NCBI GenBank assembly: GCA_022813865.1
Contig: JALDZX010000009.1
Span: forward strand, 372,001 to 436,000
Source: Xylographa opegraphella
Lineage: Eukaryota
Length of the DNA: 64,000 bases
Direction of reading: 5' to 3'
Shown in pieces: positions 1-60,035 of this stretch. Below the pieces are notes generated by a model. It searched no databases. It was not told the DNA's origin and worked only from the letters and a program-made list of their open reading frames with translations. How positions within the stretch are numbered: position 1 is the first letter of the stretch; each line of letters opens with the position of its first letter. Position numbers and translations under genes: made by a program.

Positions 1-579
1 ACGCTATGGGAAGTTCAAGAAGTGGAAATGAAATGTTTCTTGTTTGTGAAAAGCTTGGGTCGCGGAGGGCAATCGCAGGTGCTTATCAGGCCATAAACAG
101 TGGAGCTTGCCCCTGTGCAGCCTAGCTCCACACGCTATCGCCGCCTGTCCCGGCGACCTGTTGCTCACTATCCCCGTAGGACCTCCCCACCCTTGTTTTT
201 TCCTGCCGCCAATCTCAGCACGAGGATTTGTCCCGTTCGGGTAGTCGAGGCCCTACTCTAGAGCCATATCTCATCACGCCTTTGCTCTCTCCCTTTCCCT
301 CCCTCTACTCTTCCGGTGTTGTCACCGCCCGTACGCTCGCTCTACCCATCGTCGACGTAGTCAATTGGAGCGGTGAGCGAGGAAGAAAGAATCTCCCGTC
401 GCTACCTGGGCAAGTTTTCGATTATTTCTGGCCGGCCCTTATCGAAAACTTGAAAACAACAAACATTCGTTCGATAGCTTCAGAGGTGCTCTTTATCAAC
501 ATTCGCTCTTCAGAAAGGCCTGAACTGGTCATCACCGGTCGCTTCGCAAGCATTCACGCAAGACAGCGTGCTTAATATA

Positions 580-37274: not shown

Positions 37275-38595
37275 GAAGGAGACGAGCACTTTGGATGCCA
37301 ACTTTTTTTTTTTTTCAAAAAATGGAGACTCTGCTCCAACTAATATTTACCAGCACCTGCTGGATCATCGACATGGATATATGTCAATTCCAGCCCGAAA
37401 ATGAGCCAAAAAGAATGCTTTTCACGTTTGGTCTACTTTACTACCTGGCATCATGCGGGTGCAGAAATGAAGTAGAATCTGTAAAATGGTATGATAGGCA
37501 CTGGCTCACGAGCTTGATGACTTATTGAGGATTGTACAACTCTTCCCACCTATTTTACCTTATTCTATTCTGTGTCCTGGGTTATCTCTCGCCTTGTCAA
37601 ATTGTAAGTAGACAGTAGTTATGTTAATGTGAAGCACAATAGCAGCCCGCACGAGGGTTTCCGCAGTGAGTTACGTAAACTCAAAATATGTAGTTGTTAA
37701 TTTCAATATGATTTCTCGTAGATAATATTCGTTAAACAAGAGGGAAAGATGATGGTATAAAAAGTAATAAGAAAATGAGCTATAACATGGCCTTCGTCAT
37801 CAAGAATACCTGACGCTACCAATCGGTATGGTTGCAGCATGGCTCTTGGCAGGGCATACCGCACCACCGCACGCAAAATATAAAATTCAGTGGAGGACCA
37901 CTGCCAAGTAGGTTGCAAGGGAATGCCAATACGCAACTCACGTGAGGCGAAGATTCAGGACCTGTGGCAGAACATACCTGTAGATATGCACAGTATTCGA
38001 GTGGCACAATTTGGCTTGCAGCTTTGCTGTGGTACTGTACCAGCTTGTGCTCTGTACTAGGTCTTTTAATTCCTCTTCTCAGGCTCAGTGGTCAGATGGT
38101 AGTACTATACAGCCCTGCAAGAGTTTGCGCGTTCCCGTATTTGGCATTTGGTGCTATTTCCTATTGCACTCAACAGAGACTTATAGCGACGCACAAAAGC
38201 AGAGGTTCAAACTCAGTAGCAATCACAGGAGATGAAGTGCGTTCTCAGGATTAGAAGTTCGCGACCAGAGTCTGCTATGGTGAGTAGGCGGCAACTCTAC
38301 TGTATGGTATTTTACTCGGATCGTCCACCATCGTAATGTACTATGTCGAAAATAGGGATCAGAAGAGAGTCCTGGACGCCTTCCAATTGGCTTTGTGCTA
38401 CGCTAGTCTAAGTTGAGATTAGCATTGACTAGCGTGACTCCCTGAGCTTCGAGCTTTGTTTACTTACGGAAGGCTTCTTAGGTTTCATGATCAAGACTAT
38501 ATGTTTGTGCACAACAGTAACAGCGCCCGAAAAGCGGTGTATGTGGTTGCCAAAGAGGAGTCGGACGGTTGTCTATCTCCCACGCTCAACGCATC

Positions 38596-41500
38596 ATGGC
38601 TCAAACCAGCGGTTCCGGAACATCTTCGCCAGACCCTCTCGCAAGCTCATTCAACGAAACCGCAACATCAACGCATCCTCCTAAACCTATGCGCGCAGCA
38701 TTGATTACGCCGAAGAAGTCTGCGATGAAAGCTAACGGCAATATACGGCTGCAGGACTTCTACCTGACGACACCGCCCGCGGGCTTGCTACGAAACTCGT
38801 CGCCTACCAAATCGATTGCTCAGACCGAAAACCTCCTTAGTCCTTGGAGGATACATGTCACCGTTGAGGCCGAGAAAGACGAACCGAAGCACGGCAATCG
38901 CAGTCCATCGAAGTCTCCTACTAAGAAGGCGACTGCTCGCACGAAGACTACAACTATTCCTTTGAAGGGTGCCGACGACTCCTCACCAATGCAAGTCAAG
39001 AAGAGTCGGGGGAGGCCGCGAAAGTCGTTGCATACTAGGATAGCGACTCCTGGACCGAAGAAGTCTATGCAGTTGCGGAAGGACGCGGAAGCAGTGGATG
39101 ATAACCCCGTAGATATTTCCAGGCCAAAAGCTACTTCACCCAAGAAGGGGCGAGGAAGGCCAAGGAAAAGCTTGGATACCGCTTTACACAATGGTGACAT
39201 ATTCACAGACCTAGCTGCGGAGCTTCAGGCTACTGCTGGCTCAACACCTGCAGTCGCGCCGCGGTTGTCACAGTCGCCGAAGCGCACAAAACCAAAGGGC
39301 AGGAGAAATGCTTTAACTCCCAGAAAGAGTGTCATTGAGTCGGATACAAGTATGACTAATCACAAAGTTCCGGATGCTGGGGATGAAGCGACAGCAGAAG
39401 AGCATATATTGGAAGTTCAAATGTCAGATCCACCGGTGTCTTTGTCAGCAAACGACGAAGCGAATAAGAGCAAGACACATCACGACCCAACTAACGACCA
39501 TCAGGAATTTGATTCCATAATGGAAAGTGAAGGATTCAGTATGGTTTCTGTATCTTCGTTGCCATCCGCTCAACAACGTCTCGTCACATTACCAGAACAG
39601 CGTGAGCCCACTACGGACATTTCAGTCCATGCGATGTATCGATCAAGAACATCGAACACGCAGACCGCAGTCCTCGACCCACCTCGCGCTGTCATCGTTG
39701 AGGCCTCAGCGCTGCCCGCATCGTCGTTGGCGTCATTTTCTAGACTCAAGGACAATTTAAATGCTGCTATTCAAAGCCGCCCTCAACCTTCGCCCTCGGA
39801 GGTCGATAATTCATCAAGACTCTATCAAATAATACACCAGCGGACCCCCAGTGAGGTACTGTCATCACCTGCGCTGCCTGCACCTCCGCAGCCTTTACCG
39901 CACACCCACTTGCCAACAGCGGAACCGAAAACAGCGGAACCGAAGCCAGCTGGTGCTACTCCGAAGCTTGCTCGTGTTGTCCGGGCTGGTATTGCCTTGC
40001 AGGGAGTTCTCAATCCTGTTGGCCAGGACGCAAAGAAAGAACCACCAAAGAGTCGGCAAATACAACCTATTACAGGCAAGACATCGCCCAAGGATCGCCT
40101 TGATGATCTCTTCAGCGGCTTCGGGGCCGGCACGCGGCGGGAACTGCGAGCAGGACTCCGACTTGGAGAACAACTTGCGAAACGGCAGCACGTTGCGGCG
40201 CAGGCTGCTGCCATGTCACAGAATGCTACAGATGATGTCTTGCAGGAAACGACCGAGCTTGGACGCCCTAGATCTTCTTCTCCACAAGACACAAGTGACT
40301 ATTCACTCACGGCGCCAGGAGTGACACATCCACTGCAATATCCGCCTCTGCCTAATCCTCAACTTCCCAGTCCTGAGGGTAGTGAGATGGTCAATGAAGA
40401 TGACGCCATGAGCTGGAAAGCAGACATCCCTGACAAGCAGGAACTTACTCACATCGGTAGTGAACTGGCGACCTTCTCCTCACCATTACCAGGGAAACCC
40501 AGTCCGATGATGATAGCCCGAGAAGCCGAATGGCAAAGGGAAAGAGAAGCCGTGAGCAGACAAGTCGAGGAAGCTAATAGCAGCCAAGTCATCATTATTG
40601 ACAATTCTTCTACCGACGGTGATGATGAAACACCGGCCGATGATGACGAGGACGCAATAGAACATTCGCCGCCGAAAGCTGGCGAAGAGACCATTGATAT
40701 TTGGCAGTGCGAAGCACAACAATCTTCCCAAGTCCAGATTGTAGGAAAATGTGACGGTTCTGAACTGCAATTCCCTGAGGAATTCGTGAGACCGCGGCGA
40801 AGCAAGTTGCCCAGTCCATGGAGGCGAAACAAGCAGGTGGTCTATAGCGATGATCCGATCCCTGTAGAGACATCTGTGGCGTGGCACCAGGACCTCAAGC
40901 ATACAGTAACTCCACAGGAATCCGTTCGGCGGAAGCGAGTGAGATATGATGCCGCTGATTATTCTGTCCTTTCCGAATTCATTGGTCAACCTGATGATGA
41001 GTCCTCACAAATGTTCGATGAAGACCATTCGATGGATGAGATCGAGGAAGACAGCCCCTCGAAGAAAATTCAGGCGTCGAAAATACTATCACATGCGCAA
41101 TACCCTCAAAAGAGGTTGGGTGATATCGCAAACAACCAGACTCTCGGGCGTAAGAAGGTCAAGTCGAAGAAGTCATCTGCACCACCTGCTGCGAAACACA
41201 ACTCAACGCATACGTCGGATTTCCAGAAAGAGAATGATCTGAGAGAAGAAGCTTCTCCATGTCTCCAACCACCTCCAAAGACCTGGCTAAGCCGCATCAC
41301 GAGCTTTGTGCCTAGACTCCAAGATCTCATACCCACAATTTCATCAACTGCGATATTGCCCACAATAACCTCATCAAAGTCTGAACCCACCTATTCCGCT
41401 AGGAATCCTGGTCCACTCAACCAGAAAGAATCTATATCGGTGTATCAGCCGTGGACGGTACCTCATTACCGTGCTCTGAAGCCACTGTACCTCGCGGCCA

Positions 41501-41856
41501 AAAGGGACAAGAAGCTCTATCCATACAACCCACATAGTCCATCGGCATGGCTTCTTGGGCGTGATATCTTTAGCCTAGGGTGGAAGAAGGTTATTGAAAA
41601 GTGGGAGCTCGGAGTGGTGGATGCATTTCTGGATATGCTGGACGTATATGGCGTGAATGACGGCGAACTCGACAAAGACGGAAATGTCAGAGCGTTGATC
41701 GACGAGCGCGAGGTGATCAATCGAGTCTTTAGTCTTTGGGTTGGGGAAGTACAGAGGCAGGAAACGTCTGTGGGCAACGGTACCGTGGGTATCTTCGATC
41801 CAAGACATGAATGGCGGAAGCCCGCTGTGCTCAAGGCTGCTGCCGAAGGGAGATAG
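38596..41856 (+). CDS. Large, mostly disordered AT-hook protein (intronless)
   Basis: ORF of about 1086 aa; two AT-hooks (KKSRGRPRKS and KKGRGRPRKS); motifs SPWRIHVTVEAE, GTRRELRAGLRLGEQLA and EAEWQREREAVSRQ. Confidence 0.8.
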   Translation: MAQTSGSGTSSPDPLASSFNETATSTHPPKPMRAALITPKKSAMKANGNIRLQDFYLTTPPAGLLRNSSPTKSIAQTENLLSPWRIHVTVEAEKDEPKHGNRSPSKSPTKKATARTKTTTIPLKGADDSSPMQVKKSRGRPRKSLHTRIATPGPKKSMQLRKDAEAVDDNPVDISRPKATSPKKGRGRPRKSLDTALHNGDIFTDLAAELQATAGSTPAVAPRLSQSPKRTKPKGRRNALTPRKSVIESDTSMTNHKVPDAGDEATAEEHILEVQMSDPPVSLSANDEANKSKTHHDPTNDHQEFDSIMESEGFSMVSVSSLPSAQQRLVTLPEQREPTTDISVHAMYRSRTSNTQTAVLDPPRAVIVEASALPASSLASFSRLKDNLNAAIQSRPQPSPSEVDNSSRLYQIIHQRTPSEVLSSPALPAPPQPLPHTHLPTAEPKTAEPKPAGATPKLARVVRAGIALQGVLNPVGQDAKKEPPKSRQIQPITGKTSPKDRLDDLFSGFGAGTRRELRAGLRLGEQLAKRQHVAAQAAAMSQNATDDVLQETTELGRPRSSSPQDTSDYSLTAPGVTHPLQYPPLPNPQLPSPEGSEMVNEDDAMSWKADIPDKQELTHIGSELATFSSPLPGKPSPMMIAREAEWQREREAVSRQVEEANSSQVIIIDNSSTDGDDETPADDDEDAIEHSPPKAGEETIDIWQCEAQQSSQVQIVGKCDGSELQFPEEFVRPRRSKLPSPWRRNKQVVYSDDPIPVETSVAWHQDLKHTVTPQESVRRKRVRYDAADYSVLSEFIGQPDDESSQMFDEDHSMDEIEEDSPSKKIQASKILSHAQYPQKRLGDIANNQTLGRKKVKSKKSSAPPAAKHNSTHTSDFQKENDLREEASPCLQPPPKTWLSRITSFVPRLQDLIPTISSTAILPTITSSKSEPTYSARNPGPLNQKESISVYQPWTVPHYRALKPLYLAAKRDKKLYPYNPHSPSAWLLGRDIFSLGWKKVIEKWELGVVDAFLDMLDVYGVNDGELDKDGNVRALIDEREVINRVFSLWVGEVQRQETSVGNGTVGIFDPRHEWRKPAVLKAAAEGR

Positions 41857-42067: not shown

Positions 42068-43090
42068 TTAGTCCAGATATATCTCCTCCCTTAGCCTTTG
42101 CAAATTCCCCAAGAATCCCTTTCCAGCTTCTCCCGTAGCCTTGCTCCCATCCAAGCCAGCCTCGGTGGAAGCTCTTTCGCGGGCCTTCAAACCACCCTTC
42201 GCCTCCACTTCCCTCCTCCGCTCGGCGACCGTTCTCGCTAGGCCATCGACGAACTTCATCCGTGGCTTCTCTTCCACCGTTCCCTTCCACACTCCCACTA
42301 GCTCTCTGAGTTCTTCCACCCGCTTTTCGGCCGCCAGGACGCCGTCCTCCGGCCCGATGGCTAGTAAGTCGTTAATCTCGTTCTTGAAGCGAGTGAATGC
42401 CTCTTGGCCGGCTGCCTCTTGACTGGGGTGGGAGTCGGTGGAGGGAGATGTGACTGAGATTAAGGAGGAAGATATGGAGAGAGTGGATGGCGGGAGTGGC
42501 CAGGAGAGCGCGGCGTCGAAGATGGAGATGATGCTCTGCAACGAGAGGCGCACGTGGTGGAGGGTGCGGAGGGAAGTGAGGGCTTCTGGATCGGTGCCAT
42601 TGCCCGCTTCAGGGGTGTCCTCTATAGCTTGTTGAGAACGGCGTGTACCATCTGGAGACGCTAGACTGGAGCCTGCAGCATCTGCGTGGGATTGTACGGT
42701 AAGACCACCCGGAACGAACTTCTCGATGTCGGGCTTCAATGTTTCCGTCAATGTCTCGGAGAGCGAGATCGCTTCGCCGCGGAGGACTTCGACTTCGTAC
42801 GCGAGCCGCGAGCCGCTGCGGATGATGTCGTCGGTCAGGGCGGTGAGGGTGGTGGTGAGGCGGGAGGTCTGGGCACTGAGCTGGGCCACGTGAGTTTGGG
42901 TCTGAGTCGCGAGTTCGGAGAGGGAGACGACATTGGATGCTTTGGAGGGAGTGGTGGAGAAGCTGAGGATCGGAAGGGTGGAGTTGAGGTAGGCTGTGGG
43001 GTCGAATGTGGGGGAGAGGAACGGTTGGAGGAGTGGATCACTGGTGTAGGGGGAGGGGGAGGGAGGATGTGAGCTTGGGCTTGGGCTCAT
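42068..43090 (-). CDS. Coiled-coil protein, possible COG/CATCHR tethering subunit (Cog7-like)
   Basis: 340-aa ORF; FLSPTFDPTAYLNSTLP followed by a coiled coil resembles the N-termini of CATCHR subunits; family assignment is tentative. Confidence 0.6.
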   Translation of the reverse strand: MSPSPSSHPPSPSPYTSDPLLQPFLSPTFDPTAYLNSTLPILSFSTTPSKASNVVSLSELATQTQTHVAQLSAQTSRLTTTLTALTDDIIRSGSRLAYEVEVLRGEAISLSETLTETLKPDIEKFVPGGLTVQSHADAAGSSLASPDGTRRSQQAIEDTPEAGNGTDPEALTSLRTLHHVRLSLQSIISIFDAALSWPLPPSTLSISSSLISVTSPSTDSHPSQEAAGQEAFTRFKNEINDLLAIGPEDGVLAAEKRVEELRELVGVWKGTVEEKPRMKFVDGLARTVAERRREVEAKGGLKARERASTEAGLDGSKATGEAGKGFLGNLQRLREEIYLD

Positions 43091-43724
43091 GATCGATGGT
43101 AAGGTAGTAGCCGATGAAGTGGGTAATTCACTGTGTACTGGTACTTGGAGAAGCTTGCCTATTCCTGGTAGTCTGAGGTAGATACCTGAGGTACTTTTAA
43201 CCGTATGGTAGGTACCTTAGTACTGTAGACTACCTTATTGAACATCACAGCGGGCACTACTCTAGGGGCTCTTACAGGGGTTCTGGCTTAGAATCAGGCT
43301 GGCTGCACTGCAGGGATTAGGTCGGTCGGTGCCTGGAATTGCTTCAACATTACGCTCCAAGGCTGGGAAGTTTACCCCAAATTGGTGGCATTGAATGTGA
43401 CTGAATGCGTCCCGATAAACACCAAGTAGAATGATGTTGACATTCTCCACAAGACTTGAACCTTCTTGGACCTAGAATGCCTGGTTCTGTTGCAGTGAAT
43501 GATGGGCCGTGATGCCAAATTCTTGTGAATCACATGTGGAGAAGCTCTACCGCCAGTGCGCAAACCGTGTATTTCCTTCGGCTTTTTTCTGGTTCTTTAT
43601 CATAAAGGCCTGCTACCTCTTATGATTCCTCTTGTTCAATAATCGGTGAAAGTCTGCTTCGTATGCAGGCTACTAAGACCAGTCACTAAACACCAAATTA
43701 CTCACTTGCAACTCCACGACCATT

Positions 43725-46700
43725 ATGCCACGAAAAGCGTTCGTCGCTGATCTACAACAAGCTATTGTGAACCTGCCATGCGAGAAGCTTGTTGACCTGA
43801 GGGCTGGCGATGACGACGGAACCTTCGCTTTTACTTACAAACCTTTAGCTGATCAGGTTTCCGTGACAGTTAATGCTTGTATTTCAGGTACACTGCACTT
43901 TTCCTAGCTAAAACAGGGCATATGCTTTACATACTATCTACACTATCACTGACTTCTCCTAAGATGTCGGAGACTATCCTACCAATCATCAATACTTCAT
44001 CTATACGGATTCTGAAAATGTACCACCGAAAGTCACCGAAGCTCTCTCCAATGTCGACATCTTCACAGGAATGCAAGTCTCTCAGATGCTAACAATGGCT
44101 GTGAAGACCCTAGACCAGACTCTAGCAGGTTCACGTTCTCATCCAGTGTGCCTAGATGATGATCCTATGGATATTGACTCTGCAGAAGTCACTGATTGCT
44201 CAGACGATCAATTCGAAGAAGAAGAGGAAGAGGATAATGATGACGAAACTCCCTTCGATCATGGTTTTGAAGAGAATGCTTTTGCCTCAACCTCCATGGA
44301 CCACCACACTTCCACCAAAAGTCACGCTTCCCAGAGTAGGTCCGTGGATAACCATGAGTCACATGAATACCTCACTCGAGTTCGATCAGACCTCCGTGAG
44401 GTGAAGAAGGCTGGATTTCATATTGGCTACGTCGGAAGTCTGCTCGAACAGGGTCGAGACTGCTGCTTGGTCCTTTCGATTCGTGTTGCAAAGCTTGACA
44501 TACCGGAGGATGCACTTCAAGCATGGCACTTGGATCCGACACAATATGTCATGCTACTGATTCATTACGCCGAAGGATATAGATGCTTCGAGGACCTGAT
44601 TGCGTGCCGTTCGGCTCTTCGCTCTGGAGTACGTATGCGTGTTGGTGTCTGTCAAAAGCAGAAGATCACTCTAAAACAGGCAATTCATGCTTTCAGTCAG
44701 ATTAGTGACAAAGATAAGAAAAGAAGCGAGTTCAACTCTGATCTGGAAGTCGTCGAGGCAGACGGCGAAACGATGACCAAAGAGGGTCTTCAGCCCCTCT
44801 TCATAGGCCGACCATTGGACGAATTGCTCAACGATCGGCTGGTCGATCTCCTCGGTTACCGACTGAGTATGTCATTTCCGTGGAGTGGCGCAGAAGAGTA
44901 CTACAATGACCATCAAGGCCGTAATCAAACTGGAGCTGAGCCATTGGACAGCAAGTACTGGGAGAAAGAAACATCTAATTTTGCATCTCATCTCCCGGAA
45001 GTGGTAACCTCTGATCATTTCGTGGAAGGTACCAAACACAAGTCTTTTCCGCTGCTTGCTCTGCAGTTTTTACTCCGACACCTTGTTCGCTGTACTGACT
45101 TCTGCCTGGTCTGCCACTGTCGCGTTCAGGTCGAGTGGGAAGCTCTTATGCCATTCGTGTGCGAAAAGCCGCTCTGTCTCTACCAATACATGGCGTTAGG
45201 TTTCGGTCCCAGTATCGAATATGAGATCTTGACCCAACCCCACGTTGTGGATTTGCTCATAAGCTTTTGCTATAGCTCTGCGCTGACTGGCGGCCTCAAA
45301 GGGTATCCACTTGGCATGAGTTTGACGGTTCCGGACCCGTCTCTCGTCCCAAGTGACAATGTTGCCGCTGAAGTGGCGGCCCTATACCATCTGCCAGGAC
45401 GTCAAAGCGCCTTCTACCCGCCACAAGTGCCAGCCGTTCCACGGGTCAAGTCAAAGGCACACCAAGCAAAGTTCGATCGCGAACATGACGAACTGGTCTT
45501 CCCGAAAGATTTTCAGGGGAAACCGCTTCGTGTGGGTGACTGGATTTGCCTCATGAAATTCAATTCTTCAGATAAGGAACACCGTCGAGTTCTCGAGACC
45601 TGGTACCCTACTGTCCGACTGGGCCCAGCTATTGAGACCGCTTTAAACAAAGTACTGCCTCCGCGGTATGCTGAATTTCAGGAATTCTTGCCAGTATTTC
45701 ACCATCGAACAACATTAACGCCTGCCACAACACCACCTTCGCAAATTGCATCTAATACTTCGAAGTTTTCGGATGTCGAGATTGTGATCTACGATCAGAA
45801 TTTCGATGATTTATCGGAAGCAGAACGGCGCAGCTCTATCCGGATGCTGCTCGATACGCTTCCTAGTGTCCTGGATATGAGATCGTACCTGCGAAGCATG
45901 GGTCATAAGCATATGTCCTTGCGTGCTTGGAGCGATCGGATTTCTCCTGCCGCATTCGGTGTAATCAGGTGGATAATTGCGTCGAATCGGTCCTGCCTTG
46001 TTCAAATCGATGGGCATGACGACGGCACGAACAGATCTGCAGAACGGGTTTCAGGTATGAGCGGTTACATGCAATTCAGGTTTGCCCAGGTAAGATTAGA
46101 TCCTGCCGTCTTCTAGCACTATCTGAACTTTAGATCTAGGGGTCTCCCGATAAGGAACAACGGTTCGTTACAGCGATACGTGAAACAACAGAGCGGCTTG
46201 CCAAACAACATCCGAAGATATTGCGATTTCCAACTCTGTTCGCATGGCACGGATCTGCCCTACAGAATTGGCATGGTATTATCAGGGAAGGCCTTCACTT
46301 TAACGAGATTAAAAACGGTCGAGCTTTTGGAAATGGTGTCTATTTTTCATCAGAGTTTGTGACAAGTCAAGGCTACAGTTCGATACACCACGAGGCCAAC
46401 AACTATGTTGGATGGCCTAAAAGTCAACTTAAGATAACACAAGCAATTTGTCTGAACGAAATTGTCAATGCCCCTATGGAGTTTGTCAGTAAAGAGCCGC
46501 ATCTCGTTGTCAGCCAGCTCGACTGGATACAAACACGTTACCTCTTCGTACGATGTGCCGAAACTGACGAAGTCACATACGAGCAGAAACCTCTTCAGTG
46601 TCTCGAACAAGATCCGGCCTTTCTTCCAAAGGGCCCAATGCGCAGCATCATTGAGATACCTATCCAGGCGATAAGTAAGGCAAGACGACCCTCAGTAAAA

Positions 46701-47756
46701 GCGGTCCAGAACGGTCATAAGAAGTCAAAAGTCCAGTCCCCTGGTCAAGTTGAGGAAGTAATAGTCAGTGATAATACGGATACTGAAGATGAGATAATTC
46801 TGCTTTCGGACGCAGATAGCGCGCGGGCGCGTTCTCGGACGTCGGTCTCCAAGAAAGTCACGAGAGAACAACCAAGGTCTCTTGTAGCCGCAATTGGAAA
46901 CAAGCTGAAGGAAGGGCAGCTGGGCGTGCGAAAAATTCTTGGTGGTCATTCTAGACCTGTACCTGGTCTCGATAGTGTGGACTACTCTCTAGTGCCTGAG
47001 AATGAACATCAACTAGGATCTTCGACAGACTTCGTTCCTGGGACTTTAAATCACTCAACATTACCCATGCTCAAAGAGCCAGCTTATGCTACAACGTCAG
47101 CAACCAAAGCGCTCCAGAGAGAGCTGAAAGCTACGCTGAAGGTGCAGCAAACGCATCCGGCACAGGAGCTGGGTTGGTATCTCGACCCTGAACTGGTTTC
47201 CAACATCTATCAATGGATTGTCGAGCTCCATTCGTTCGACTCGGGTCTTCCGCTCACCGCAGACATGAAAGATAAAGGCGTCAGAAGTATTGTCCTCGAG
47301 CTCCGGTTCGGCCAGGACTTTCCGTTTAGTCCACCATTTGTTCGTGTCATACGTCCTCGTTTTCTGCCTTTCATGCTAGGTGGTGGTGGTCACGTTACTG
47401 GTGGAGGTGCCTTGGTCAGCGTAACTCCACCGTCATATATGCATCAGAATCTGACAATTTTTTAGTGTATGCAGCTTCTGACTAGCTCCGGCTGGAATGT
47501 GGCTTGCAACATCGAGTCCGTACTCCTCCAGATACGATTAGCGATATCGTCTCTTGATCCGAAGCCTGCGCGACTCGAGTATGGACCCGTTCGTGATTAT
47601 GGTGTAGGTGAGGCGGTTGAGGCCTTCAAGCGAGCTTGTCGAGCACATAATGTTCGTTTTCTATTTTCTACCGTTGGGCATTGTGCTGACCTCATGCAGT
47701 GGGAGATTCCGAAGGACTTCGACACGATCATTCAAGGTTCCGAGAGAGGACTCTAA
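43725..47756 (+). CDS. PARP6/8-like ADP-ribosyltransferase fused to a C-terminal UBE2Q-like ubiquitin-conjugating (E2) domain
   Basis: FCLVCHC...FVCEKPLCLYQY Cys motif; QFRFAQG; FAWHGS..NWHGIIREGL, GRAFGNGVYFS and IQTRYLFV (ART fold); NIYQWIVEL, FPFSPPFVRVIRPRF and GGHVTGGGAL|CMQLLTSSGW (E2). About four introns. Confidence 0.9.
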
Positions 47757-50700
47757 TCATACGTGCCTTTTGTGTTCTTGAGAAGTTGGGTGGAGGACTA
47801 GGACTTGTTCTCCGATTATATTGGTGAGTATTGTGGCGTTTGCTGGTAGGTATTTGCCTTGGGAGTTCTATCGATACCCTTGCGTGGGACAAGTAATGAT
47901 GGCTGGGGTCCGTGACAGGCATGGTTCGGCTATTACTTGTTTATGAGAGATTATCGCTGCATAGCTGCAGCAAAGCCGATTTCTTGACAGAAGTCTTAGA
48001 CTTGAGACAATAGGATGAGCTTAAGTCATTCGGCCTCGCTTTCACATTCATGATACATTGACACGATTCTCAATTTCCTTTTTTCTTTTGACTCGTGGAT
48101 GTGACCACGTAAGAGACTTTTTATATATGATCAATCTTGGTATCTGAATCCTCACCGTTATAGTTAACTAATAGTACCCCATTTGACATGTTCCGGATCC
48201 GTGGAAGTCCCGGTGAGGAGCAAGTCACCGCGGAACGCGGTCGCGCAAACGCAAGCCGCACTGGAATCAGCTCACCAACGACTACAGAATCCAAGCCCAG
48301 TGAAGAAATGCTTGCCAGCACAGCGCGCAGTCGTTCTTTACAGGCCACATCTCTGGATTCTTCATGGTTATTCAGGTGTCTACTTTACTTCTTACCAGTC
48401 TTCAGCACCTACCTCCGCAATTCTTGAGATTCTAGCTTCTTCACCTTCAGCAAACACCCTGCGTCTACAGTCTCGCGCCTCTTACCGTGAAAGCTCGGCC
48501 CGAACGCACCAAGGATAGCGTTTACTCGAATGCGCACTGCCTCTAACAAGGGTGTCTAGAGGTGTTTGAGCACGAGGCGGTCAGAGGTGGTGATAGTGTG
48601 CGAGATTTGACGGCGAGAGATCGTGTTCTCGCATGACGAAGACATCCAAGACACAGTGCAAGAGATGTTTCAGGAGGTTCTCGCAATGCGAGGACAGCAC
48701 GGCTCTGATCGAGTGGTATTTGAAGGCTTCGGAGCGGTAAGGCGAAGACGGCCTAAAAAGGTGCGTCTTGTTTGCTTATTATTTTCTTTTCTTGTTACAA
48801 GTGCGGCCACTTGGTATAAAAGGGGAGGCTGTAAGGGCTACAGGCCTTTACCCCCTTAATGGTTAGCATGCGTGCGGACGATAAGGGCGGCCATTAAGGA
48901 TAGGGTCTCCCTTTTCTGGTTTGCGGCGTCGTTGATGAAGGTCTGCGGCACTGCATGACTCCATAATCGACGCTGGGGGATCGACACTTGGTTTCTCACT
49001 GTGCAACAAGCGTGGGAGGTCTTGGGTGTCAGACGTGGAAACTGCATCTCAGGGCCAAGTCGTTACAAATGGTAGCACTGTATCCACCGTCTGGCCTAAG
49101 CAGTAATCGACCACTTAGATACTGATACCGAACTTATCGCCGATTTCACCGGGCGCTTGTCAGCTCCACACAAACCCAAGCAGCCAGCTTTCGATATTGC
49201 TTAAGCACTTTCGTTTTCCATCTTCGTTGGGGATCAGTAGCACGAAACGCGTCGCATCCTACGAGCCGTTCATGAGCGAGGTCGACAGCCGTGGGAAGCC
49301 TACCCCTAGTATACTGCTTACGTCGGTGGACGTCGGCGAAGTCGGATTGAACCTGACTCGCGCGTGAAACGGTTTCCTCCTTTCGTGATGCTCCTTTCAT
49401 TTAGAATATTTATGGGACGCCGGAGGACTTATATAAACAATAAGACGGGTCGCGCGCGAGGGTCAAGGTGATGCGGAATACTTCTGGTATCGGATGCACA
49501 CCGAGGGCTTGGAAGCTGACTCGATGGCAATGGGTCGTACGAAGTTTAAAAAAACTTTTTGTTCGGACTTGGCCATATTCTGATCTTTCGCCACCCTCCG
49601 TGACGACGTAATTTTTCCACGAGAACTATTGTCCCTACTTCGCCCTAACCGTAGCTTGAAAAAAAAGGGTACAAGGATCTGTGCTCCCCTCCGTTGCAAC
49701 AGTAGTTCGCTAAGTTACGCTTTTAATGGAGAACGTCTTTTGTTTATTCTTATACCGTTTGAGTAATACTAATTTCGAAGAAACTATACAAATAATATTT
49801 ATTAAAATTCATAAAGGCTCTACTCCGTATTATTTATGGGGATACGGAAACGAGCTGGCTTCGTGACGAGCTTCCCTCCATTTGATAAATAGCTGACTCC
49901 ATTAAGACAAATCGTCGATACGTTTGTCGGTGTGAGCTTTTCGACCTCTTTGTATGGGGTCGAGCCTTGTGGATCATGCTATCTGGGGAGAAGTCACGAG
50001 GTCAGAAAGTGATCGCAGAGAAGAAGGGTGGGGAGTGAGTGTGATGGATTCGAGGGAGGGGATTGTTGGTTTCTGCGCATCTGATGGACGGGTTGATGGC
50101 TGGTTTCTGGGGGGCTGGTGTGAGGCTTTAGTGGTGATGAATTAGGAAGTGCGTGGTCGGCGGGTCTCATACTTTATTGTTCCGGTTTCTTGGAGACGGC
50201 TGCTACCTGTGAGCAGGGGAAGGGGGGGGGGAGGAACTGTTACCGGCTCAGGTAGTGCATGCGGGAGCCGATGTTCAGGTATGGAGTCCTCGAGGAAGGC
50301 TGCTTTGGAGGTAGTGGTGTCATGGCAGTCCGGTGCGAGTACGTAGCCGTCACTCGAACAGCTTTAATGCAACAGAAAGACGGCGCTGAAGCGTGAGAGC
50401 TTGATATAGAATTGCCTCCATGTGTTCAAGGTAACAATAGCGCATATGTAAACAGTATCCAATTCATCATGTCGAAGCGATCCCATAACGTTTTCTTTAA
50501 CCGGCGAACATTGAAACAGCTCTCCATCAGGCTGGTCCGAATTACAGCATGCACTATCCAAGTCAGTGTATTCGTGCAATATTGCCAACACGCTCCAGCT
50601 CTTCAGTACTTAGGGATCGTCTTTATTATTCTTTCTCCATGATGTCCACTCAAGGCTTCCGCAACCCTGGCTACTCACCCATGGTACCTATTTTCTGGCA

Positions 50701-51675
50701 CAACCGTTCGAGACCGGATCTATCTCTTCCGAAATCCCCTTCTCGGTCTCATATCCCCCGGCGCTTTGACATTGCAAATTCTTGAATCAATGGTGCTCCT
50801 TCTTGCTCCAAAGACCTTAGGTACTCTGATGGTCAGATAATCCATGTGTATATTTAATTCTTGGTCATCAGTAGACTGAGTGCGTGCCACGGGGTCTCCG
50901 AGGCATACGGAGTATAGCTGAGCGAAATGAAACGTGTGAGATATTGACTAAGCCGTCAGCATCGCTCGTCCTCATAGCTTCGGGCTGCTGGATTGCCTTA
51001 GGTTACATAGTACCCCGAGTAAAGGCCGCGGCTAGTGATTTCTCCGTGGCGGTTCCTTCAAAGCCCGACTTCAGCTCTAGGCGGCTGATTTAAGGTAAAA
51101 GCAGTTCGCCGATGAGTGACGCAGCCCTACCAAGCAAGGGTCAGCTTTCGGGGTTTAATGTATCTGTTCTGATTGGTTGGATTCTTGTACTAGGAGTTTT
51201 CAAGCCTAGCTCAATCTCGCATCAATCTTCTTTCCTTCGTCCGCTCGTGACGGTTCACGGCACCTTACTAGGCTGAGCAGAGCTACTGTGTTAGTTATCC
51301 CTAAAGTTCAACTCGCCGACCTCCTGAAAGCCACCAGTATGGACTTGAGGAGATGGTCGTTTCAAGACGCATCGGTTTGCAGTGTATAACGTACACCGCC
51401 TCAGCTTCACTAGGGCCGGGACCCATTGGCCTGCTGATGCGCCTCATTCCTCAGCCAAAATGCTAACATGAGCGGGAACCAGGGCGGCGTGGAACTTGTG
51501 AATACCTATCATAATGGATCCTACTTCGCCGAAGTGTTATTCGGGTGACACGGCAGTATATATACCGTCGCACTCCGGATTTTGTCGCGATGGCTAACGG
51601 CTTTCCACATCTACTCCTTACTTCTTGAGATCCCAGTCGTGTGTGACAAAGGCAGTGATAACACATCCATTCAAA

Positions 51676-53838
51676 ATGGGGCATGATGTCGAATCTGCCG
51701 ATGGGGCTTATCTGCAGAACACAACAGTGAACCATATCTCCTGGAAAGCTTTGAATGTTGAGGTCTACGACAAGTCTATTGGACGCGACAAGACGATACT
51801 ATCAGATGTGAACGGACATGTTAATGCAGGTATGATCTCTGTCGGACATGTCATGTTTATTTCTCGAGAATCGGAGATCTTGCCTTGGGCAACACGTTCT
51901 CACGCCATAGCAATTCCTTGATGGCCTTTGTTACAAAGTCAAGCTATACTGACCTCTTCCAGGAGAGATCTTAGCACTCATGGGCCCGTCAGGGTGTGGC
52001 AAGACGACTCTGCTGGATATCCTCGCTCATCGACGAACAAATCCCAAATTCAAGATACACGGCGATATACTCATTAATGATCTCAAACCATCGTTATCTG
52101 CGATTCGGAAATCTTCCAGCTATGTTGAACAAGAACGTATAGCTATTCCCCCGCCCTGCATGTACCCAGCGGTAAGCTAACATATCTTGGAAGAAAGTCT
52201 AATAGGGAGTCTTACTTCGTGGGAAACTCTTTATTTTGCTGCCAAAATAGCTCTACCGAGGTATGCACTATTGTATGAGATCGAAGGGAGACATCTCAGC
52301 TAACACCTGAACACAGAAATGTTACATCCAAAGAGCGCAAAGACCGAATCGATTCCCTCTTGTTCTCGTTTGGCCTTCAAAACCAGGCGGATACTATCAT
52401 CGGAACTCCGATCCGTAAGGGATTAAGTGGAGGTCAGAAAACACGAGTCGACATCGCAAGCTCGCTCATAACATGCCCGAAGATCCTGTTCTTGGACGAA
52501 CCCACAAGCGGACTGGATTCGGCAGCAAGCAAGGAAGTGATGTCGTACCTGAGGAAGGTTGCTAAGGCCAACTCGATTATTGTTATCGCCAGTGTACATC
52601 AGCCGTCTACGTCAACATTTGCTTTGTTCGATAAGCTTTTGCTTCTCTCAGCTGGCAAGACATGTTACTTTGGAGAGGCGGACAAGGTTAGCAGCTATTT
52701 TGGATCTATCGGGTATCCCATACCATTGCAGTTCAACCCTGCCGAGTTCCTCCTTGACCTGGTAAATGTCGACTTTGCCGAGGACAAAATTTCCGCGACA
52801 AACAACCTTAGCCAAATCCACTCCGCTTGGAACCGGTTCACACAGGGTAATGCCTCTCATCCTGTACCAGTGGCTGTTCGACGGCAACAAGAAGAAACTC
52901 GGCATGGCAACATGAGCGACAGGCTCAGTCCCAGCCTTGAGAAGAGCAAGACCGAAGCTCTCGAAGCTGATAGCCATACTGGACCTGCTCAATATCTCAT
53001 CCCTCTCACGCTGTTGCACCGGAACTTTATCAAAAGCTACCGAGACGTAGTCGCCTACGGGGTCCGATTCGCAATGTACACTGGTTTGGCCATAATGATG
53101 GGAACAGTCTGGCTTCGTCTATCCACCAACCAGGAATCCATTCAAGCCTTCATCAACGCTATATTCTTTGGCTCCGCGTTTATGTCCTTCATGGCTGTCG
53201 CTTACGTACCTTCCTATCTTGAGGATCGCGCCACATTTGTGAAAGAGCGAGCGAACGGGCTTTACGGCCCAACAAGCTTCATGATTGCCAATTTCTTGAT
53301 CGGGATCCCCTACCTATTCCTGATATCGGTAATATTCTCGCTGATTACCTACTTCCTTTCCAACTTCCGTCCCACGGCCACCGCTTTCATGACATGGTTA
53401 ATGTTCCTTTTCCTCGATCTCCTGGCCGCCGAGTCTCTTGTCGTCCTAGTCTCGTCACTGTTCCCTACCTTCGTCATCGCTCTCGCCCTTACTGCCTTTG
53501 CGAATGGGCTTTGGATGTCAGTGGGAGGCTTTCTGGTCTCGCCGACGCTCTTGAACGTCTTTTATACCTACGTCTTCTCATACATCGACTATCAGGCATA
53601 TGTTTTCAAAGGGATGATGGTCAATGAGTTCAAAGACAGGGTGTACAGCTGTGGGAATGGCTGCCGATGCATGTACGCCAGCGCGTTGGAAGACCAATGC
53701 GAGATTAGTGGGGTTGCGGTCCTTGACCAGTATGGGTATGGGACTGGGGAGCTGGGGACATGGGTGGGAATTCTGCTGGGCATTGTGGTAGGCTATAGGC
53801 TGCTTGGGTGGCTTGCTTTGTGGGTGAAGAGGTCATGA
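51676..53838 (+). CDS. ABCG-family half-size ABC transporter (NBD-TMD)
   Basis: Walker A GPSGCGKTT, signature LSGGQKTR, Walker B ILFLDEPTSGLD, H-loop SVHQPS, and an ABC2 membrane domain; several 5' introns. Confidence 0.93.
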
Positions 53839-54585: not shown

Positions 54586-57044
54586 ATGCCGCTCTTCATT
54601 CTTACTGAAACAGCTGCAGGTTTTGCCCTTCTCAAAGCGAAAGGTAGACACTCCATATTTGCGGAACCACAATTGCCCTCCAATGGCAGAAATTGTGTGG
54701 GTAGTCGTCAACTAATCACCAAATTTCTTTCACAGACAAGAAACTGCTTCAAAATGAGAATCTCGAGGCTGAAACTGAGACTGCCGAGCAAATATGCTCA
54801 TTGTAAGTCAATCAACATGAGTAGGGCGCAGTCGCGTGGCACTCAAGCCCTGCAGACAGCAATATCTGGGATGCCTACTGATCCTCGCCTAGATTGAAGC
54901 TCAAGCAATTTCAAAAATTCGACAGCGCAGCGACAGCTTTGGAAGAGGTCGCAGCTCTAGTAGAAGGCAAAGTCACACCCAAACTTGCGTCACTGCTGGA
55001 CTCGATCAAAGATGAAAAGAAAGTCTCGTTGGCGGTGGCCGACCCAAAGCTTGGTACGTCAAGAGCTAAACATCAGCGATAGGGTCATGGCTAAACGTGA
55101 ACAGGCAATGCTATCAACAAGCTTCCACAATTGCAAATCACACCGATATCTGACTCTACCACCGCTGATTTGTACCGCGCTATCCGGAATCACCTTCCAT
55201 CTCTGATTCCCGGCCTACTGCCAACCGATATCTCGACCATGTCACTGGGATTGTCCCACTCTCTATCACGGCACAAGCTCAAGTTCTCTCCCGATAAAGT
55301 AGACACTATGATAGTTCAAGCCATTGCGCTGTTGGACGACCTCGATAAAGAGCTGAACACATATGCCATGCGTGTCAAGGAGTGGTATGGATGGCATTTT
55401 CCGGAGATGGGACGCATCGTCAACGACAATCTGGCATATGCCAGGGTTATACTGAAAATGGGAATGCGGACCAATGCTGTAAACGCAGATCTTACGGACA
55501 TATTACCAGAGGAGATTGAGACGGCCGTCAAAGCCGCTGCTGAAGTTTCCATGGGTACGGAAATCACCGCCGAGGATTTGGACAACATTCAGGCACTCGC
55601 GGAGCAAGTTGTGAATTTTACTGAATACCGTCAGCAGCTGTCAAGCTACTTGTCCGCACGGATGGCGGCTATTGCTCCCAATCTTACCGCTCTCGTTGGT
55701 GATCTCGTCGGCGCACGACTGATCGCGCATGCTGGAAGTCTGATGAACCTTGCCAAAAGCCCTGCGAGTACGATACAAATCCTCGGGGCCGAGAAAGCAC
55801 TGTTCCGCGCACTGAAGACGAAGCATGATACACCTAAGTATGGATTAATCTACCATGCGTCGCTTATTGGTCAAGCCACGGGTAAGAACAAGGGCAAAAT
55901 AGCTCGAGTCCTCGCCGCTAAGGCAGCAATTGGAATCCGTGTCGATGCATTGGCCGACTGGAGTGCTGAAGGTGAGGGTAAAGGCGATCTCGTCACTGAA
56001 GAAGAGAAGTCTGCGCTCGGTGTTGAAAGCCGACTTCGGATTGAGAGGCGCCTCGCTGGTTTGGAAGGCAAACCTTTACGATCCAGAGGGGTCGCCATAG
56101 GCCCCAATGGTACATCTAGTCAGCCAGGAAAGTGGGAAATAAAAGAGGCCAAAAAGTACAACCCAGACGCCGATGGACTTGCTGGCGATGAACGAGCCGC
56201 TATAGCTCCGGTGTCTAAGAAGCCGAAGGATAAGAAAGCGGAAGAACCTAAGTTAATTGAGGAGGTTGTAGACAAGCCTATGGCTGACGCTGAAGATTCA
56301 GACGATGACTCCGATGAGGAGGCGGAAGCCGACCAGGAAGTCGAAGAGAGCGAAGATGAAGATGAGGAGGACGAGGACGAAGAAATGGAAGATGTGTCTG
56401 CAACGGCACAGCCTACGGTGTCGCCACCAAAGTCCTCGAACCCGACTTTAACAACCAACGGAACAACCACGAACGGGGCGAGAAAGGACGATGATGAAAG
56501 ATCGATCACTATCTCAACAGTATCTGCAGACACTCCATACTCTCCCGACTCTCCGACGCAACAAGAACTTAATTGGCGATCCAGCATCTTAGGCAACACC
56601 AAGGAAGCCAAGAAAGCACGCAAGAAGGAACGACACGCTCGCAAGCTCGCCGAATCCGAAGAACGCAGCAAAAAGCGAGCTGAACGAAATGCAAAGCTGG
56701 CTCGCCGCCTGGACCGAAAAGAACGCAGAATCAAGCGAGCGGAGCAGATCTCAAGCCGAGAAGACCGTGAGCACGAGCAGTATCGCGATCTCGCCAATAA
56801 AGCAGGCTTGACGACTAGTCGGTACAAGCGGAAGCTCGAGAGGGGCGAGATCAAGTTCGAAGCGGACGGCACGCCGGTTGCAATCTCGAAGAAGGATATC
56901 AAGAAGGCGAGGAAACAGGCTGAGAAGGCGGCGAAGGTGCCGACGAACGGTGACGCGGATACGGTTGTTGGGCAGAAGCGGAAGAGGGAGGAGGAGAGCG
57001 GTGAGAAGGAGAAGAAGAAAAAGAAAAGTAGCAAGTCCAGTTGA
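54586..57044 (+). CDS. NOP58: Box C/D snoRNP protein Nop58
   Basis: [73 protein letters not shown] and a Lys-rich tail; three introns. Confidence 0.96.
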
Positions 57045-57863: not shown

Positions 57864-59570
57864 TCACTTCTCCCCCCCCTTCGCCCCCCTCTTCACCACC
57901 TTCTCCCCCCGAATCGCCGCCATCACGATCTCCGCCGCATTACTCTGCTTCGTCGTCGCCGGCTTCTGCTTCCCCTTCTGCACCTTCGCGCCCCTGACCC
58001 CCACCGTCCTCTTCTCCCTCTCCCTCTCCCCCTCCCCCTCCTTCTTCACCCCCTTCCCATAACACCCCCCATTGCCACTCCGGCCCCGGACCTCCGCGCC
58101 CAGCACCGCACACGCCGCCGGAATGCGATGCGCATTCGAGTAAAGGCTGTCCTTGGTGCGTTGCGGGCGCGGGCCCGTCTCCCCCGCGAGCGGCTTGCCC
58201 GCGAAGTGCTCGTTGTAGTCCAGCATCAGCTGGCCCCAGTCCGGCTTGAAGCGGGGCGTCTTGCTGCCCGATTTCTGGTTCGCGAGCCAGCCGGTGATGA
58301 ACTCTTCCTCGGCCGCCGCGTACGTGACCCGCGTCCTCTTGGGCGCGGGTTCTGCGGCGGCGGCCGAGGCGGGGGCGGGGGCCGAGGCGGGGGCGGGGGC
58401 CAAGACAGAGGCGGGAGGGGGCGCGCTGGCTTCGACTTTGAACTGTGGGCACGGGAGGGTTATTTGTGGGTTTTGCGGGTATGGGCAGGGGTGTGCGGCG
58501 GAGGGAGTCGTGCGTGGTGCGTGATTGGGTAGGAGGGGTGGGTGCGCTGGGGTGGACAGATGTGGGAAGGGGATTGGGAAATGGAAGTGGTGTGGTACGG
58601 ACGGCAGGATACGGTGCAGATGCGGAAGCAATTGGAAGGCATTGACACAGAACAAGACGTCTGAGTCGCAGTGTAGTGAATGAGAATACAAACGGCACGG
58701 AAGGAGACGTGCGTGGTGCATGAGGTGTGAAAGCGTGTGTGCGAGAAGTGGAACAAGGGGGTGATGACTTACAGTCGCCTTGCGTACTCTCTTGCCCCTT
58801 GGAGCATCCTCCTCCACCAGGTCCGTCTCCAGCTCCGCCACCATCTTGCGTTTCCGGCCCCTCCTGGGCCCTTCGGGGGCAGGATCCTCAGGAGCGGGCA
58901 CGGTAGGAGCAGGAGCATCTGCCACAGGCGCCGCAATGACAGCGGCGGTCTCGACAGCGGCAGATCCTCCCGCTTCCTCCTCCTCGTTCTCCTCCTCCAC
59001 CTCGGCGAAGAGGTCGATCAACAACGCGGCCTGCGCGTTGATGGTGGGGGAGGGTGAGGGGGCGGCGGAGCCGGTCGGGGCGGGGGCAGGGGATGGGGCT
59101 GGGGATGGGGCTGGGGATGGGGCCGGGGTGGAGGCAGAGGAAAGAGGGGCAGGGGGGGTGTTCTGGGCAGCGGCGGCGGCGGCGGCGGCGTCGGCGGCGA
59201 TGAAGGGGAAGACAGCAGCGTACACTGTCTTGCCCTCGGCAATCAAGTCGGCCGCCAGTATACGGTCAGCGACTTCGTCCGCCGCCGCCATCTGCTCGTC
59301 ACGGAGGTTGTCCTTTACGACCTGATCGGCCGTGTGGTTGTTGAGGGCCGTCCTCATGTTGAAGTCGGCCGCGACGAAGTATTCCCAGGCCGTTCCGGCT
59401 GTCACCCTGCACGTCCCCATGAGCTTGGCCACCCCCTCCTGCATCTTCGCGAGGACCTTGGCTTGCAGGCCCTTGTTGCTGGCGTAAACGGCGCCGGCCT
59501 GCTGAACACGAGCAGCGTGAACGTCGTCGACGGCACCCTCCGTGGCAGCAATGTAGGCGTATGTAGACAT
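57864..59570 (-). CDS. Orphan-like protein with an N-terminal UBA-like and a C-terminal Myb/SANT-like domain; probable 330-nt intron at 58772-58443
   Basis: 568-codon ORF; AKLMGTCRVTAGTAWEYFVAADFNMRTALN (UBA-like); RVTYAAAEEEFI...DWGQLMLDYNEHF...RTKDSL (Myb-like); GTAAGT donor and CACAG acceptor. Confidence 0.6.
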   Translation of the reverse strand: MSTYAYIAATEGAVDDVHAARVQQAGAVYASNKGLQAKVLAKMQEGVAKLMGTCRVTAGTAWEYFVAADFNMRTALNNHTADQVVKDNLRDEQMAAADEVADRILAADLIAEGKTVYAAVFPFIAADAAAAAAAAQNTPPAPLSSASTPAPSPAPSPAPSPAPAPTGSAAPSPSPTINAQAALLIDLFAEVEEENEEEEAGGSAAVETAAVIAAPVADAPAPTVPAPEDPAPEGPRRGRKRKMVAELETDLVEEDAPRGKRVRKATVSHHPLVPLLAHTLSHLMHHARLLPCRLYSHSLHCDSDVLFCVNAFQLLPHLHRILPSVPHHFHFPIPFPHLSTPAHPPLLPNHAPRTTPSAAHPCPYPQNPQITLPCPQFKVEASAPPPASVLAPAPASAPAPASAAAAEPAPKRTRVTYAAAEEEFITGWLANQKSGSKTPRFKPDWGQLMLDYNEHFAGKPLAGETGPRPQRTKDSLYSNAHRIPAACAVLGAEVRGRSGNGGCYGKGVKKEGEGEREREKRTVGVRGAKVQKGKQKPATTKQSNAAEIVMAAIRGEKVVKRGAKGGEK

Positions 59571-59643
59571 GCTGGTTGGTGGATTGAAGAAAGTGGTGTT
59601 GAAAATGGTTTGATTAGGACGGCGGCGTGAGGTTGGTTTGCTG

Positions 59644-60035
59644 GAAGTCTATGCTTGAGCTTGGTCTCTGGGACGAAGACTCGTGGATGTGTTGGAAGAT
59701 ATGTGTAAGGTGTATGGATGGGCGAAGATATGCTTGAGCTCGGTCTCTGGGACGAAGTCTCGTGGATGTGTTGGAAGATGTGTGTGAGGTGTATGGATTG
59801 GTGAAGGTATGCTTGAGCTCAGTCACTAGGACGAAGACTCCTGGATGTGTTGGAAGATGTGTGTAAGGTGTATGGATCGGTGAAGGTATGCTTGAGCTCG
59901 GTCACTAGGACTAAGACTCGTGGATGTGTTGGATGATGTATGTAGAGGTGTATGGATGGATGAAGATGTAGTTGAGCTCGGTCAATGAGACGAAGACTTG
60001 CGGATGTGTTGGATGATGTATGTAAAGGTGTGTAT
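59644..60035. repeat. 79-80-bp tandem repeat, about 5 copies
   Basis: ATGCTTGAGCT at 59651, 59730, 59809 and 59888, with a fifth diverged copy about 80 nt further on; core GGACGAAGACTCGTGGATGTGTTGGAAGATG. Confidence 0.93.

Follow-up and report, generated by a model that had tools for sequence, protein, structure and literature searches.

The genome assembly of Xylographa opegraphella, a lichen-forming ascomycete of the Lecanoromycetes, contains on contig JALDZX010000009.1 a gene whose predicted product carries an ADP-ribosyltransferase (ART) domain and a ubiquitin-conjugating (E2) domain in a single chain. The gene lies on the forward strand of the 64,000-nucleotide (nt) stretch that we analyzed (contig positions 372,001 to 436,000; hereafter the window, in which position 1 is the first base). 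By reading the sequence together with its stop-to-stop frames, we built the following model of five exons:

43725-47756, + strand: whole gene, five exons; ATG at 43725, stop codon at 47754-47756; product of 1268 amino acids (aa)
43725..43887, + strand: exon 1; codons for residues 1-54 and one further base; opening part of the N-terminal FPE/RWD-like region; GT donor at 43888
43888..43963, + strand: intron 1, 76 nt; GTACAC..CCTAAG; CTGAC 14 nt upstream of the AG
43964..46089, + strand: exon 2; residues 55-763, comprising the rest of the N-terminal region, an acidic insert, a zinc motif, a helical extension with a beta-barrel insert, and the first ART strand
46090..46139, + strand: intron 2, 50 nt; GTAAGA..ATCTAG; shifts the frame
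46140..47414, + strand: exon 3; residues 764-1188 in one uninterrupted frame of 425 codons, comprising the ART triad, a linker of ~170 residues, and the E2 domain as far as its 111th residue
47415..47465, + strand: intron 3, 51 nt; GTCAGC..TTTTAG; its last triplet is an in-frame TAG
47466..47651, + strand: exon 4; residues 1189-1250; its first codon is that of the catalytic Cys
47652..47699, + strand: intron 4, 48 nt; GTTCGT..ATGCAG; in frame and free of stops
47700..47756, + strand: exon 5; residues 1251-1268 and the stop codon

All four introns are bounded by GT and AG, and in three of the four a CTGAC motif resembling a branch site precedes the AG by 10-15 nt. The spliced translation of 1268 aa agrees at every position with P0001, an NCBI hypothetical protein of X. 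opegraphella, which bears out the start and stop (43725 and 47756) given in a preliminary description of this locus. That description had placed an acidic linker, a CxxC...CxxxxC motif, the sequences WHGS and GVYFS, and a UBE2Q-like E2 in one gene, and each of these could be located; it had also recognized that the catalytic Cys of the E2 comes into frame only when splicing joins GGAL to CMQLL, as is the case for Cys1189 at the head of exon 4. The intron concerned had been given as ~47415-47466, of which the start holds and the end has to be moved to 47465, and the fourth intron, 47652-47699, was missed in that first reading of the sequence. The expectation that annotation would miss the E2 was mistaken, as the public annotation of the gene already has all five exons and both domains. 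Splicing, and the existence of a single transcript, are predicted from homology and sequence signals. Pfam matched no family for exons 1, 2 or 4. Exon 3 by itself, in its one open frame of 425 codons, matches both PARP16 and UBE2Q1/2, and therefore the ART and the E2 cannot be separate genes at the DNA level.

The ART portion of the gene comprises the following features:

46063..46565, + strand: ART (PARP catalytic) domain, residues 755-905, split by intron 2; Pfam PARP match and structural match to PARP16
46248-46250, 46341-46343 and 46500-46502, + strand: codons of the ART triad, His800, Tyr831 and His884, respectively

The Pfam family PARP (PF00644) matches residues 796-851 (E 9.8e-12, 45.2 bits), a segment that includes WHGS (residues 799-802) and GVYFS (residues 829-833). 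HMMER alignments to PARP16, whether made with the single protein or with a profile, end at PARP16 chain position 220, ahead of the strand of the third triad residue, because the loop before that strand is longer in PARP16. We therefore relied for the third position on an AlphaFold model of residues 415-947, computed with an alignment of 55 relatives (mean predicted local distance difference test score, pLDDT, 83.7; predicted template modelling score, pTM, 0.85). In this predicted model one strand terminates at His800, the following strand contains Tyr831, and His884 stands directly before a strand LVV. The top Foldseek match of the ART model was PARP16 (E 2.1e-06), and VIA-align paired model positions 46..490 with positions 3..274 of the PARP16 chain (Z 18.0, root-mean-square deviation [rmsd] 2.6 A, 221 residues). 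The register of the third triad position was then read from the end-points of this alignment, on the assumption that its last 20 residues are ungapped: His884 (model position 470), 20 residues before the aligned end at PARP16 274, falls on Tyr254 of PARP16. The same end-point counting puts His884 on residue 987 of PARP10, and it also lands on what we take to be the third triad residues of PARP12, PARP14 and PARP15. Tyr254 is the predicted catalytic residue of PARP16, an active mono-transferase with the triad H-Y-Y (PMC3372510), and Ile987 of PARP10 is the equivalent of Glu988 of PARP1 (PMC3562000; published sources, here and throughout, are cited for the parts of their text available to us). 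Given an ungapped alignment of the last 20 residues, the model thus supports the placement of His884 at the position of PARP1 Glu988. The preliminary description had arrived at a His in this position by manual alignment to PARP1, and the structural register with PARP16 Tyr254 and PARP10 Ile987 agrees with it on the same assumption.

Conservation was assessed in an alignment of 151 rows, made up of the protein and the 150 cluster representatives listed at 50% identity, with fragments retained. His800 and Tyr831 are present in every non-gap row (148/148 and 149/149, respectively). Position 884 is occupied by His in 109 rows, Tyr in 18, Cys in 9, Phe in 7, Ile in 4, Thr in 2 and Asn in 1, and never by Glu, Asp or Gln; of the 120 closest relatives, 112 have His there and 8 have Tyr. 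The catalytic Glu that marks poly(ADP-ribose) polymerases proper (H-Y-E) is accordingly missing, and PARPs that lack it are mono-transferases (PMC2964712, PMC13720257). On these alignments H-Y-H is the usual triad of the family, a detail that our analysis adds. The term 'H-Y-H' does not occur in the available main text of a 2026 preprint on the family (10.64898/2026.07.25.740670), and we found no open-access paper in which it is joined with 'ADP-ribosyltransferase'; the third-triad His may well be visible already in the supplementary alignment of the 2010 survey by Citarelli et al.

The E2 portion of the gene comprises the following features:

47082..47753, + strand: UBE2Q-like E2 domain, residues 1078-1268, split by introns 3 and 4; solved relatives UBE2Q2 (1zuo) and UBE2Q1 (2qgx)
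47391-47393, 47466-47468, 47646-47648 and 47700-47702, + strand: codons of the E2 residues His1181, Cys1189, His1249 and Trp1251, respectively

Residues 1080-1249 match the solved structures of UBE2Q2 (1zuo, E 1.2e-22) and UBE2Q1 (2qgx, E 5.8e-20), and the match runs unbroken across the exon 3/4 junction, where GGAL and CMQLL meet across intron 3. With a profile of the family, the E-values were 8.9e-33 for UBE2Q2 and 3.4e-31 for UBE2Q1, against 3.1e-05 for the best E2 outside the Q group. These two human proteins are thus the best solved relatives of the E2 domain, with which they share the stretch GG-x-V-x-GGGA-[LI]-CM-[EQ]-LLT and the lack of an HPN motif; in place of HPN the Xylographa protein has GGGGHVTGGGALC, compared with GGYVLGGGA[LI]C in UBE2Q. 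The domain accordingly shows the features by which the UBE2Q family is recognized, namely a fold closest to UBE2Q, no HPN, and a Cys in the context GGGA[LI]CMELL. The catalytic Cys is present in all 149 non-gap rows of the conservation alignment, His1181 in 138 of the 151 rows and His1249 in 139 of the 151.

Human UBE2Q1 and UBE2Q2 are non-canonical, HPN-less E2s that react poorly with Lys and transfer ubiquitin to Ser, Thr, glycerol and glucose, and this activity of UBE2Q1 depends on Tyr343, His409 and Trp414 around Cys351 (PMC10971424). By chain numbering against UBE2Q1, Cys1189 corresponds to Cys351 and His1249 to His409, and Tyr343 is replaced by His1181, such that the Tyr343-His409-Trp414 triad is not present as such. 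Trp1251 trails His1249 at a shorter spacing than that of UBE2Q1 Trp414 (H-x-W in the Xylographa protein versus H-x4-W in UBE2Q), and the two Trp residues are paired by motif only. As judged from these residues, the E2 has a UBE2Q-type active site, without HPN and with His for Tyr343, again a detail added by our analysis; the domain may work like UBE2Q, yet it is not a typical member at the Tyr343 site.

The C-terminal end of the E2 domain is often misread in relatives. Intron 4 sits between His1249-Asn1250 and Trp1251 and, if retained, would separate Asn1250 from Trp1251 by 16 residues. In 23 of the 120 closest relatives the sequence H-[GN]-W-x-[VI]-P is continuous, with the intron removed, whereas in 9 an in-frame insert of 17-21 residues precedes the same motif, W-x-[VI]-P-x-D-[FL]. 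A further 86 continue after 'HG' with unrelated tails that begin with Val (Val-Ser in 72 of the 86), which is what read-through of the GT donor gives, and the remaining 2 are truncated. Intron 4 is thus read through in 95 of the 120 database models, while it is removed in the annotation of the X. opegraphella gene. On this comparison of sequences, intron 4 is conserved across the family and often missed by automatic gene models. In database entries that read through it, the C-terminal W-x-[VI]-P-x-D-F motif, including the Trp near the E2 active site, is lost or displaced. The residue after His1249, usually Gly, is Asn in the Xylographa protein, and Asn is found there in 5 of the 120 relatives, all of them Xylographa.

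Upstream of the ART domain, the protein has three further features:

44116..44370, + strand: acidic insert, residues 106-190, of which 26 of 85 are Asp or Glu; poorly conserved, with a gap fraction that averages 0.60 when the family is aligned
45091..45177, + strand: PARP6/8-type zinc motif, C431, then C435-x2-C438-x15-C454-x4-C459
45442..45804, + strand: six-stranded beta-barrel inside the helical extension, residues 548-668, with one low-confidence loop; from predicted models

Exon 2 is conserved across the family despite its lack of a Pfam match. Residues 1-300 align with the family consensus; Pfam gave no match in this region, and residues 1-330 gave no usable Atlas match. The reading of the N-terminal FPE region as an RWD domain follows published descriptions (PMC13720257, PMC10450202). 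In the zinc motif, C435, C438, C454 and C459 are present in 125/125, 126/126, 127/127 and 126/126 non-gap representatives, respectively, and all four are invariant in the narrower A1 alignment; C440 is unconserved, being found in 38 of the 151 rows. The motif fits the definition CX2CX9-19CX4C (Perina et al. 2014, PMC4245714), in keeping with the PARP6/8 resemblance that had been noted earlier for it. The beta-barrel insert, folded alone, gave a predicted model with a mean pLDDT of 83.2. A Foldseek search with this model returned nothing at E<=0.001 (the best match, at 0.064, was a phage tail tube), and a wide VIA search reached at best Z 8.2 (a mitoribosomal protein, 71 residues, rmsd 2.4 A), which is background level. 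The VIA matches listed, down to Z 5.8, were a mixture of Upf1/Sen1 helicase, reductase FAD-binding and ATPase N-terminal barrels, and no WWE-like ADP-ribose reader was among them. The models therefore describe the insert as a generic closed barrel, predicted to be without a specific structural relative.

Taken together, the parts of the protein are ordered as FPE/RWD-like region, PARP6/8-type C4 zinc motif, helical extension with barrel, H-Y-H ART domain, linker of ~170 residues, and UBE2Q-type E2. This is the order of the clade 6A PARPs of fungi, also called PARP-Ubc or fPARP2, and the gene is very probably the X. opegraphella orthologue of that clade. In line with this, the protein has an ART with His and Tyr and without Glu, a C-terminal UBCc domain with its Cys, and a CX2CX9-19CX4C motif, and its similarity to the family extends over the full length. 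At E<=0.001 we found 1658 longer proteins that match, with PF00644 and PF00179 both present in 117 of the 120 best, and at E<=1e-30 the search matched 322 clusters made at 50% identity. Full-length identity to the 55 other members of the A1 alignment ranges from 32 to 85%. Among the Xylographa proteins, identity is highest (86-98%) in the zinc motif, the ART, the E2 and the second half of the helical extension, and lowest (55-76%) in the acidic insert and the linker between ART and E2. Compared with a described clade 6A member such as Af-PARP2 of Aspergillus fumigatus (AFUB_070850), the part order is shared throughout and the Xylographa protein shows no substantial difference, apart from Trp for Phe at 446 and other substitutions at the level of the genus.

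To our knowledge, this fungal family is the only known case in which an ADP-ribosyltransferase and a ubiquitin E2 occur in a single chain. It is present in most filamentous fungi, including pathogens of plants and people. The architecture of clade 6A was described by Citarelli et al. in 2010, who found the Glu in no clade 6 protein (PMC2964712), and Perina et al. in 2014 defined the CX2CX9-19CX4C motif and reported PARP6/8 homologues with UBCc domains from Ascomycota and Basidiomycota as well as from a moss and a green alga (PMC4245714). Human PARP6/8 were re-annotated in 2023 by Suskiewicz et al. as C4* zinc finger, split RWD, helical extension and ART (PMC10450202). The 2026 preprint uses the name PARP-Ubc, places the E2 in the UBE2Q subfamily, and counts the family in 322 of 534 fungal genomes, 256 of the 288 filamentous ascomycetes among them (10.64898/2026.07.25.740670). 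A 2026 review gives fPARP2 as RWD, 4C* zinc finger, helical extension with a fungal beta-barrel insert, ART and UBCc, and states that experimental validation of these domains and of the activation of fPARP2 is outstanding (PMC13720257); a 2026 paper on A. fumigatus PARP1 names Af-PARP2 and, in the text available, does not study it (PMC13507078). The gene is therefore an orthologue of a described family and not a new system. The preliminary description was right to recall from surveys that fungal PARP-UBC fusions were known without an assigned function, as the 2010, 2014 and 2026 accounts confirm; its further view of the gene as the best candidate for an uncharacterized system in the window does not hold as worded, the gene being an ordinary orthologue in a family reported from 322/534 fungal genomes.

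Comparison with better-known proteins places the two halves of the molecule. Human PARP6 and PARP8 (clade 6D) share with it the C4* zinc finger, an RWD-type domain, the helical extension and a Glu-less ART. Their third triad residue is presumably Ile, compared with His in the Xylographa protein. They have no E2 domain, and the beta-barrel insert is described as fungal-specific (PMC13720257). Human PARP16, the best solved structural match of the helical extension and ART, has an aromatic residue, Tyr254, at the PARP1 Glu position, a longer loop before the third triad strand, and a transmembrane tail in place of the E2 (PMC10450202). UBE2Q1 and UBE2Q2 likewise pair an RWD domain with a UBC domain, but in the Xylographa protein a whole PARP module stands between the RWD-like region and the UBC. 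In PARP9-DTX3L and the DELTEX proteins, too, ADP-ribosylation is physically coupled to ubiquitin, and ADP-ribose-ubiquitin hybrids are produced; there, however, a RING-DTC E3 sits on a separate chain, whereas here an E2 is fused to the transferase, such that the likeness is a functional analogy only.

What the fused protein does must be weighed on these data. As read from the alignments, the NAD-binding His and Tyr and the E2 Cys are kept, and the elongating Glu is absent, in this gene and throughout the family. From what is known of PARPs and E2s, the ART domain would transfer single ADP-ribose units, and E1 would charge the E2 domain on Cys1189. The charged E2 would probably pass its ubiquitin to hydroxyl or thiol groups and not to lysines, because it is of the UBE2Q kind without HPN. 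A target would then be mono-ADP-ribosylated first, and ubiquitin would be attached to that ADP-ribose or to a residue close by. We favor this plausible mechanism, in which both activities would act in cis on one target, though tentatively and at somewhat short of an even chance. Several points weigh against it. With a long, poorly conserved linker between them, the ART and the E2 may never come into contact. The family has several residues at the third triad position (H/Y/C/F/I/T/N), which argues against a specific catalytic role of His884. UBE2Q-like chemistry would not be guaranteed, since the essential Tyr343 of UBE2Q1 is His here. The Pfam family UQ_con (PF00179) matches residues 1149-1216 with 25.4 bits, below the cut-off of 27, a score on which the E2 assignment does not depend because the UBE2Q2 and UBE2Q1 structures match. 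Finally, we found no biochemical or genetic data on any member of the family in the parts of the literature available to us.

Of the other explanations, the one that fares best is that the two domains work independently or that one regulates the other: the E2 would be an ordinary one that acts with external E3s on lysines, and the ART would regulate it, by auto-ADP-ribosylation or NAD+ sensing, or would mark it for turnover. Multi-domain E2s such as BRUCE exist (PMC2964712), and a long disordered linker would permit independent action. We nevertheless think this unlikely, if not greatly so, given that the HPN needed for reactivity with lysine is absent, as in UBE2Q, and that the strict co-retention of both catalytic centers suggests a joint function.

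A more specific version of coupling is that the ART adds mono-ADP-ribose and the tethered E2, without an E3, esterifies Gly76 of ubiquitin to a hydroxyl of that ADP-ribose, leaving a hybrid mark like that of DELTEX. Ubiquitylation of ADP-ribose at its 3' hydroxyl is reported for DELTEX E3s (PMC7615817), the E2 belongs to the hydroxyl-reactive UBE2Q kind, none of the lineages sampled has lost either active site, and the fusion is ancient and stable. However, this scheme is inferred in its entirety, and Tyr343, which is essential for the non-canonical activity of UBE2Q1, is His here; we regard it as decidedly unlikely. Extended across kingdoms, the same idea would make the fungal fusion a Rosetta stone, in which a fused, E3-independent, UBE2Q-type E2 esterifies ubiquitin onto the ADP-ribose written by its own ART. 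We offer this as a long shot. If it were true, animal PARP6/8 (RWD, C4 zinc finger and ART) and UBE2Q1/2 (RWD and UBC) would be the separated halves of one ADP-ribose-ubiquitin machine, and His884 and His1181, both nearly invariant, would be adaptations to the chemistry of ubiquitin on ADP-ribose. We did not find a link between PARP6/8 and UBE2Q proposed in the literature, as far as titles, the beginnings of abstracts and individual passages tell. The combination of an H-Y-H triad with an HPN-less, UBE2Q-type E2 that has His for Tyr343 makes the idea of crosstalk concretely testable in vitro, and these sequence details also suggest a partnership of PARP6/8 and UBE2Q in humans.

One of the two domains might instead be a pseudo-enzyme, with the ART serving as a reader that binds NAD+ or ADP-ribose, or the E2 as a non-catalytic binding module. 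The variable third triad position would fit this, and some human PARPs are inactive, PARP9 being cited as such by Citarelli et al. 2010 (PMC2964712). Yet no non-gap row departs from His800, Tyr831 or Cys1189, and PARP16, with H-Y-Y, is an active mono-transferase (PMC3372510), and so we give this explanation a slim chance. That the gene is really two genes or two transcripts, or a mis-joined model, is scarcely credible, as the ART triad and E2 residues 1078-1188 occupy one stop-free frame of 425 codons in exon 3 and the same fusion recurs in 117 of the 120 best relatives.

The neighboring genes in the window offer no hint of function. Upstream, the frames at 38521-41856 (+; 1111 codons) and 42068-43216 (-; 382 codons) match no Pfam family at E<=0.001, and in the ~3.7 kb immediately 3' of the gene (47757-51500) the open frames of both strands do not exceed 116 codons. 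Next, at 51598-53838 (+), comes an ABC transporter gene of the ABC-2/ABCG kind with several exons, in which ABC_tran, ABC2_membrane_7 and ABC2_membrane match a frame of 519 codons (52279-53835) and a Walker-A-like sequence lies in a frame at 51953-52180. Farther downstream, a 594-codon frame with Ala/Pro repeats at 57864-59648 (-) lies mostly within 58001-60000, a segment with 62% G+C and a strong GC skew, and the adjoining frame at 55101-57044 (+) encodes, by eye, a putative snoRNP protein of the Nop56/Nop58 type with a Lys/Glu-rich tail.

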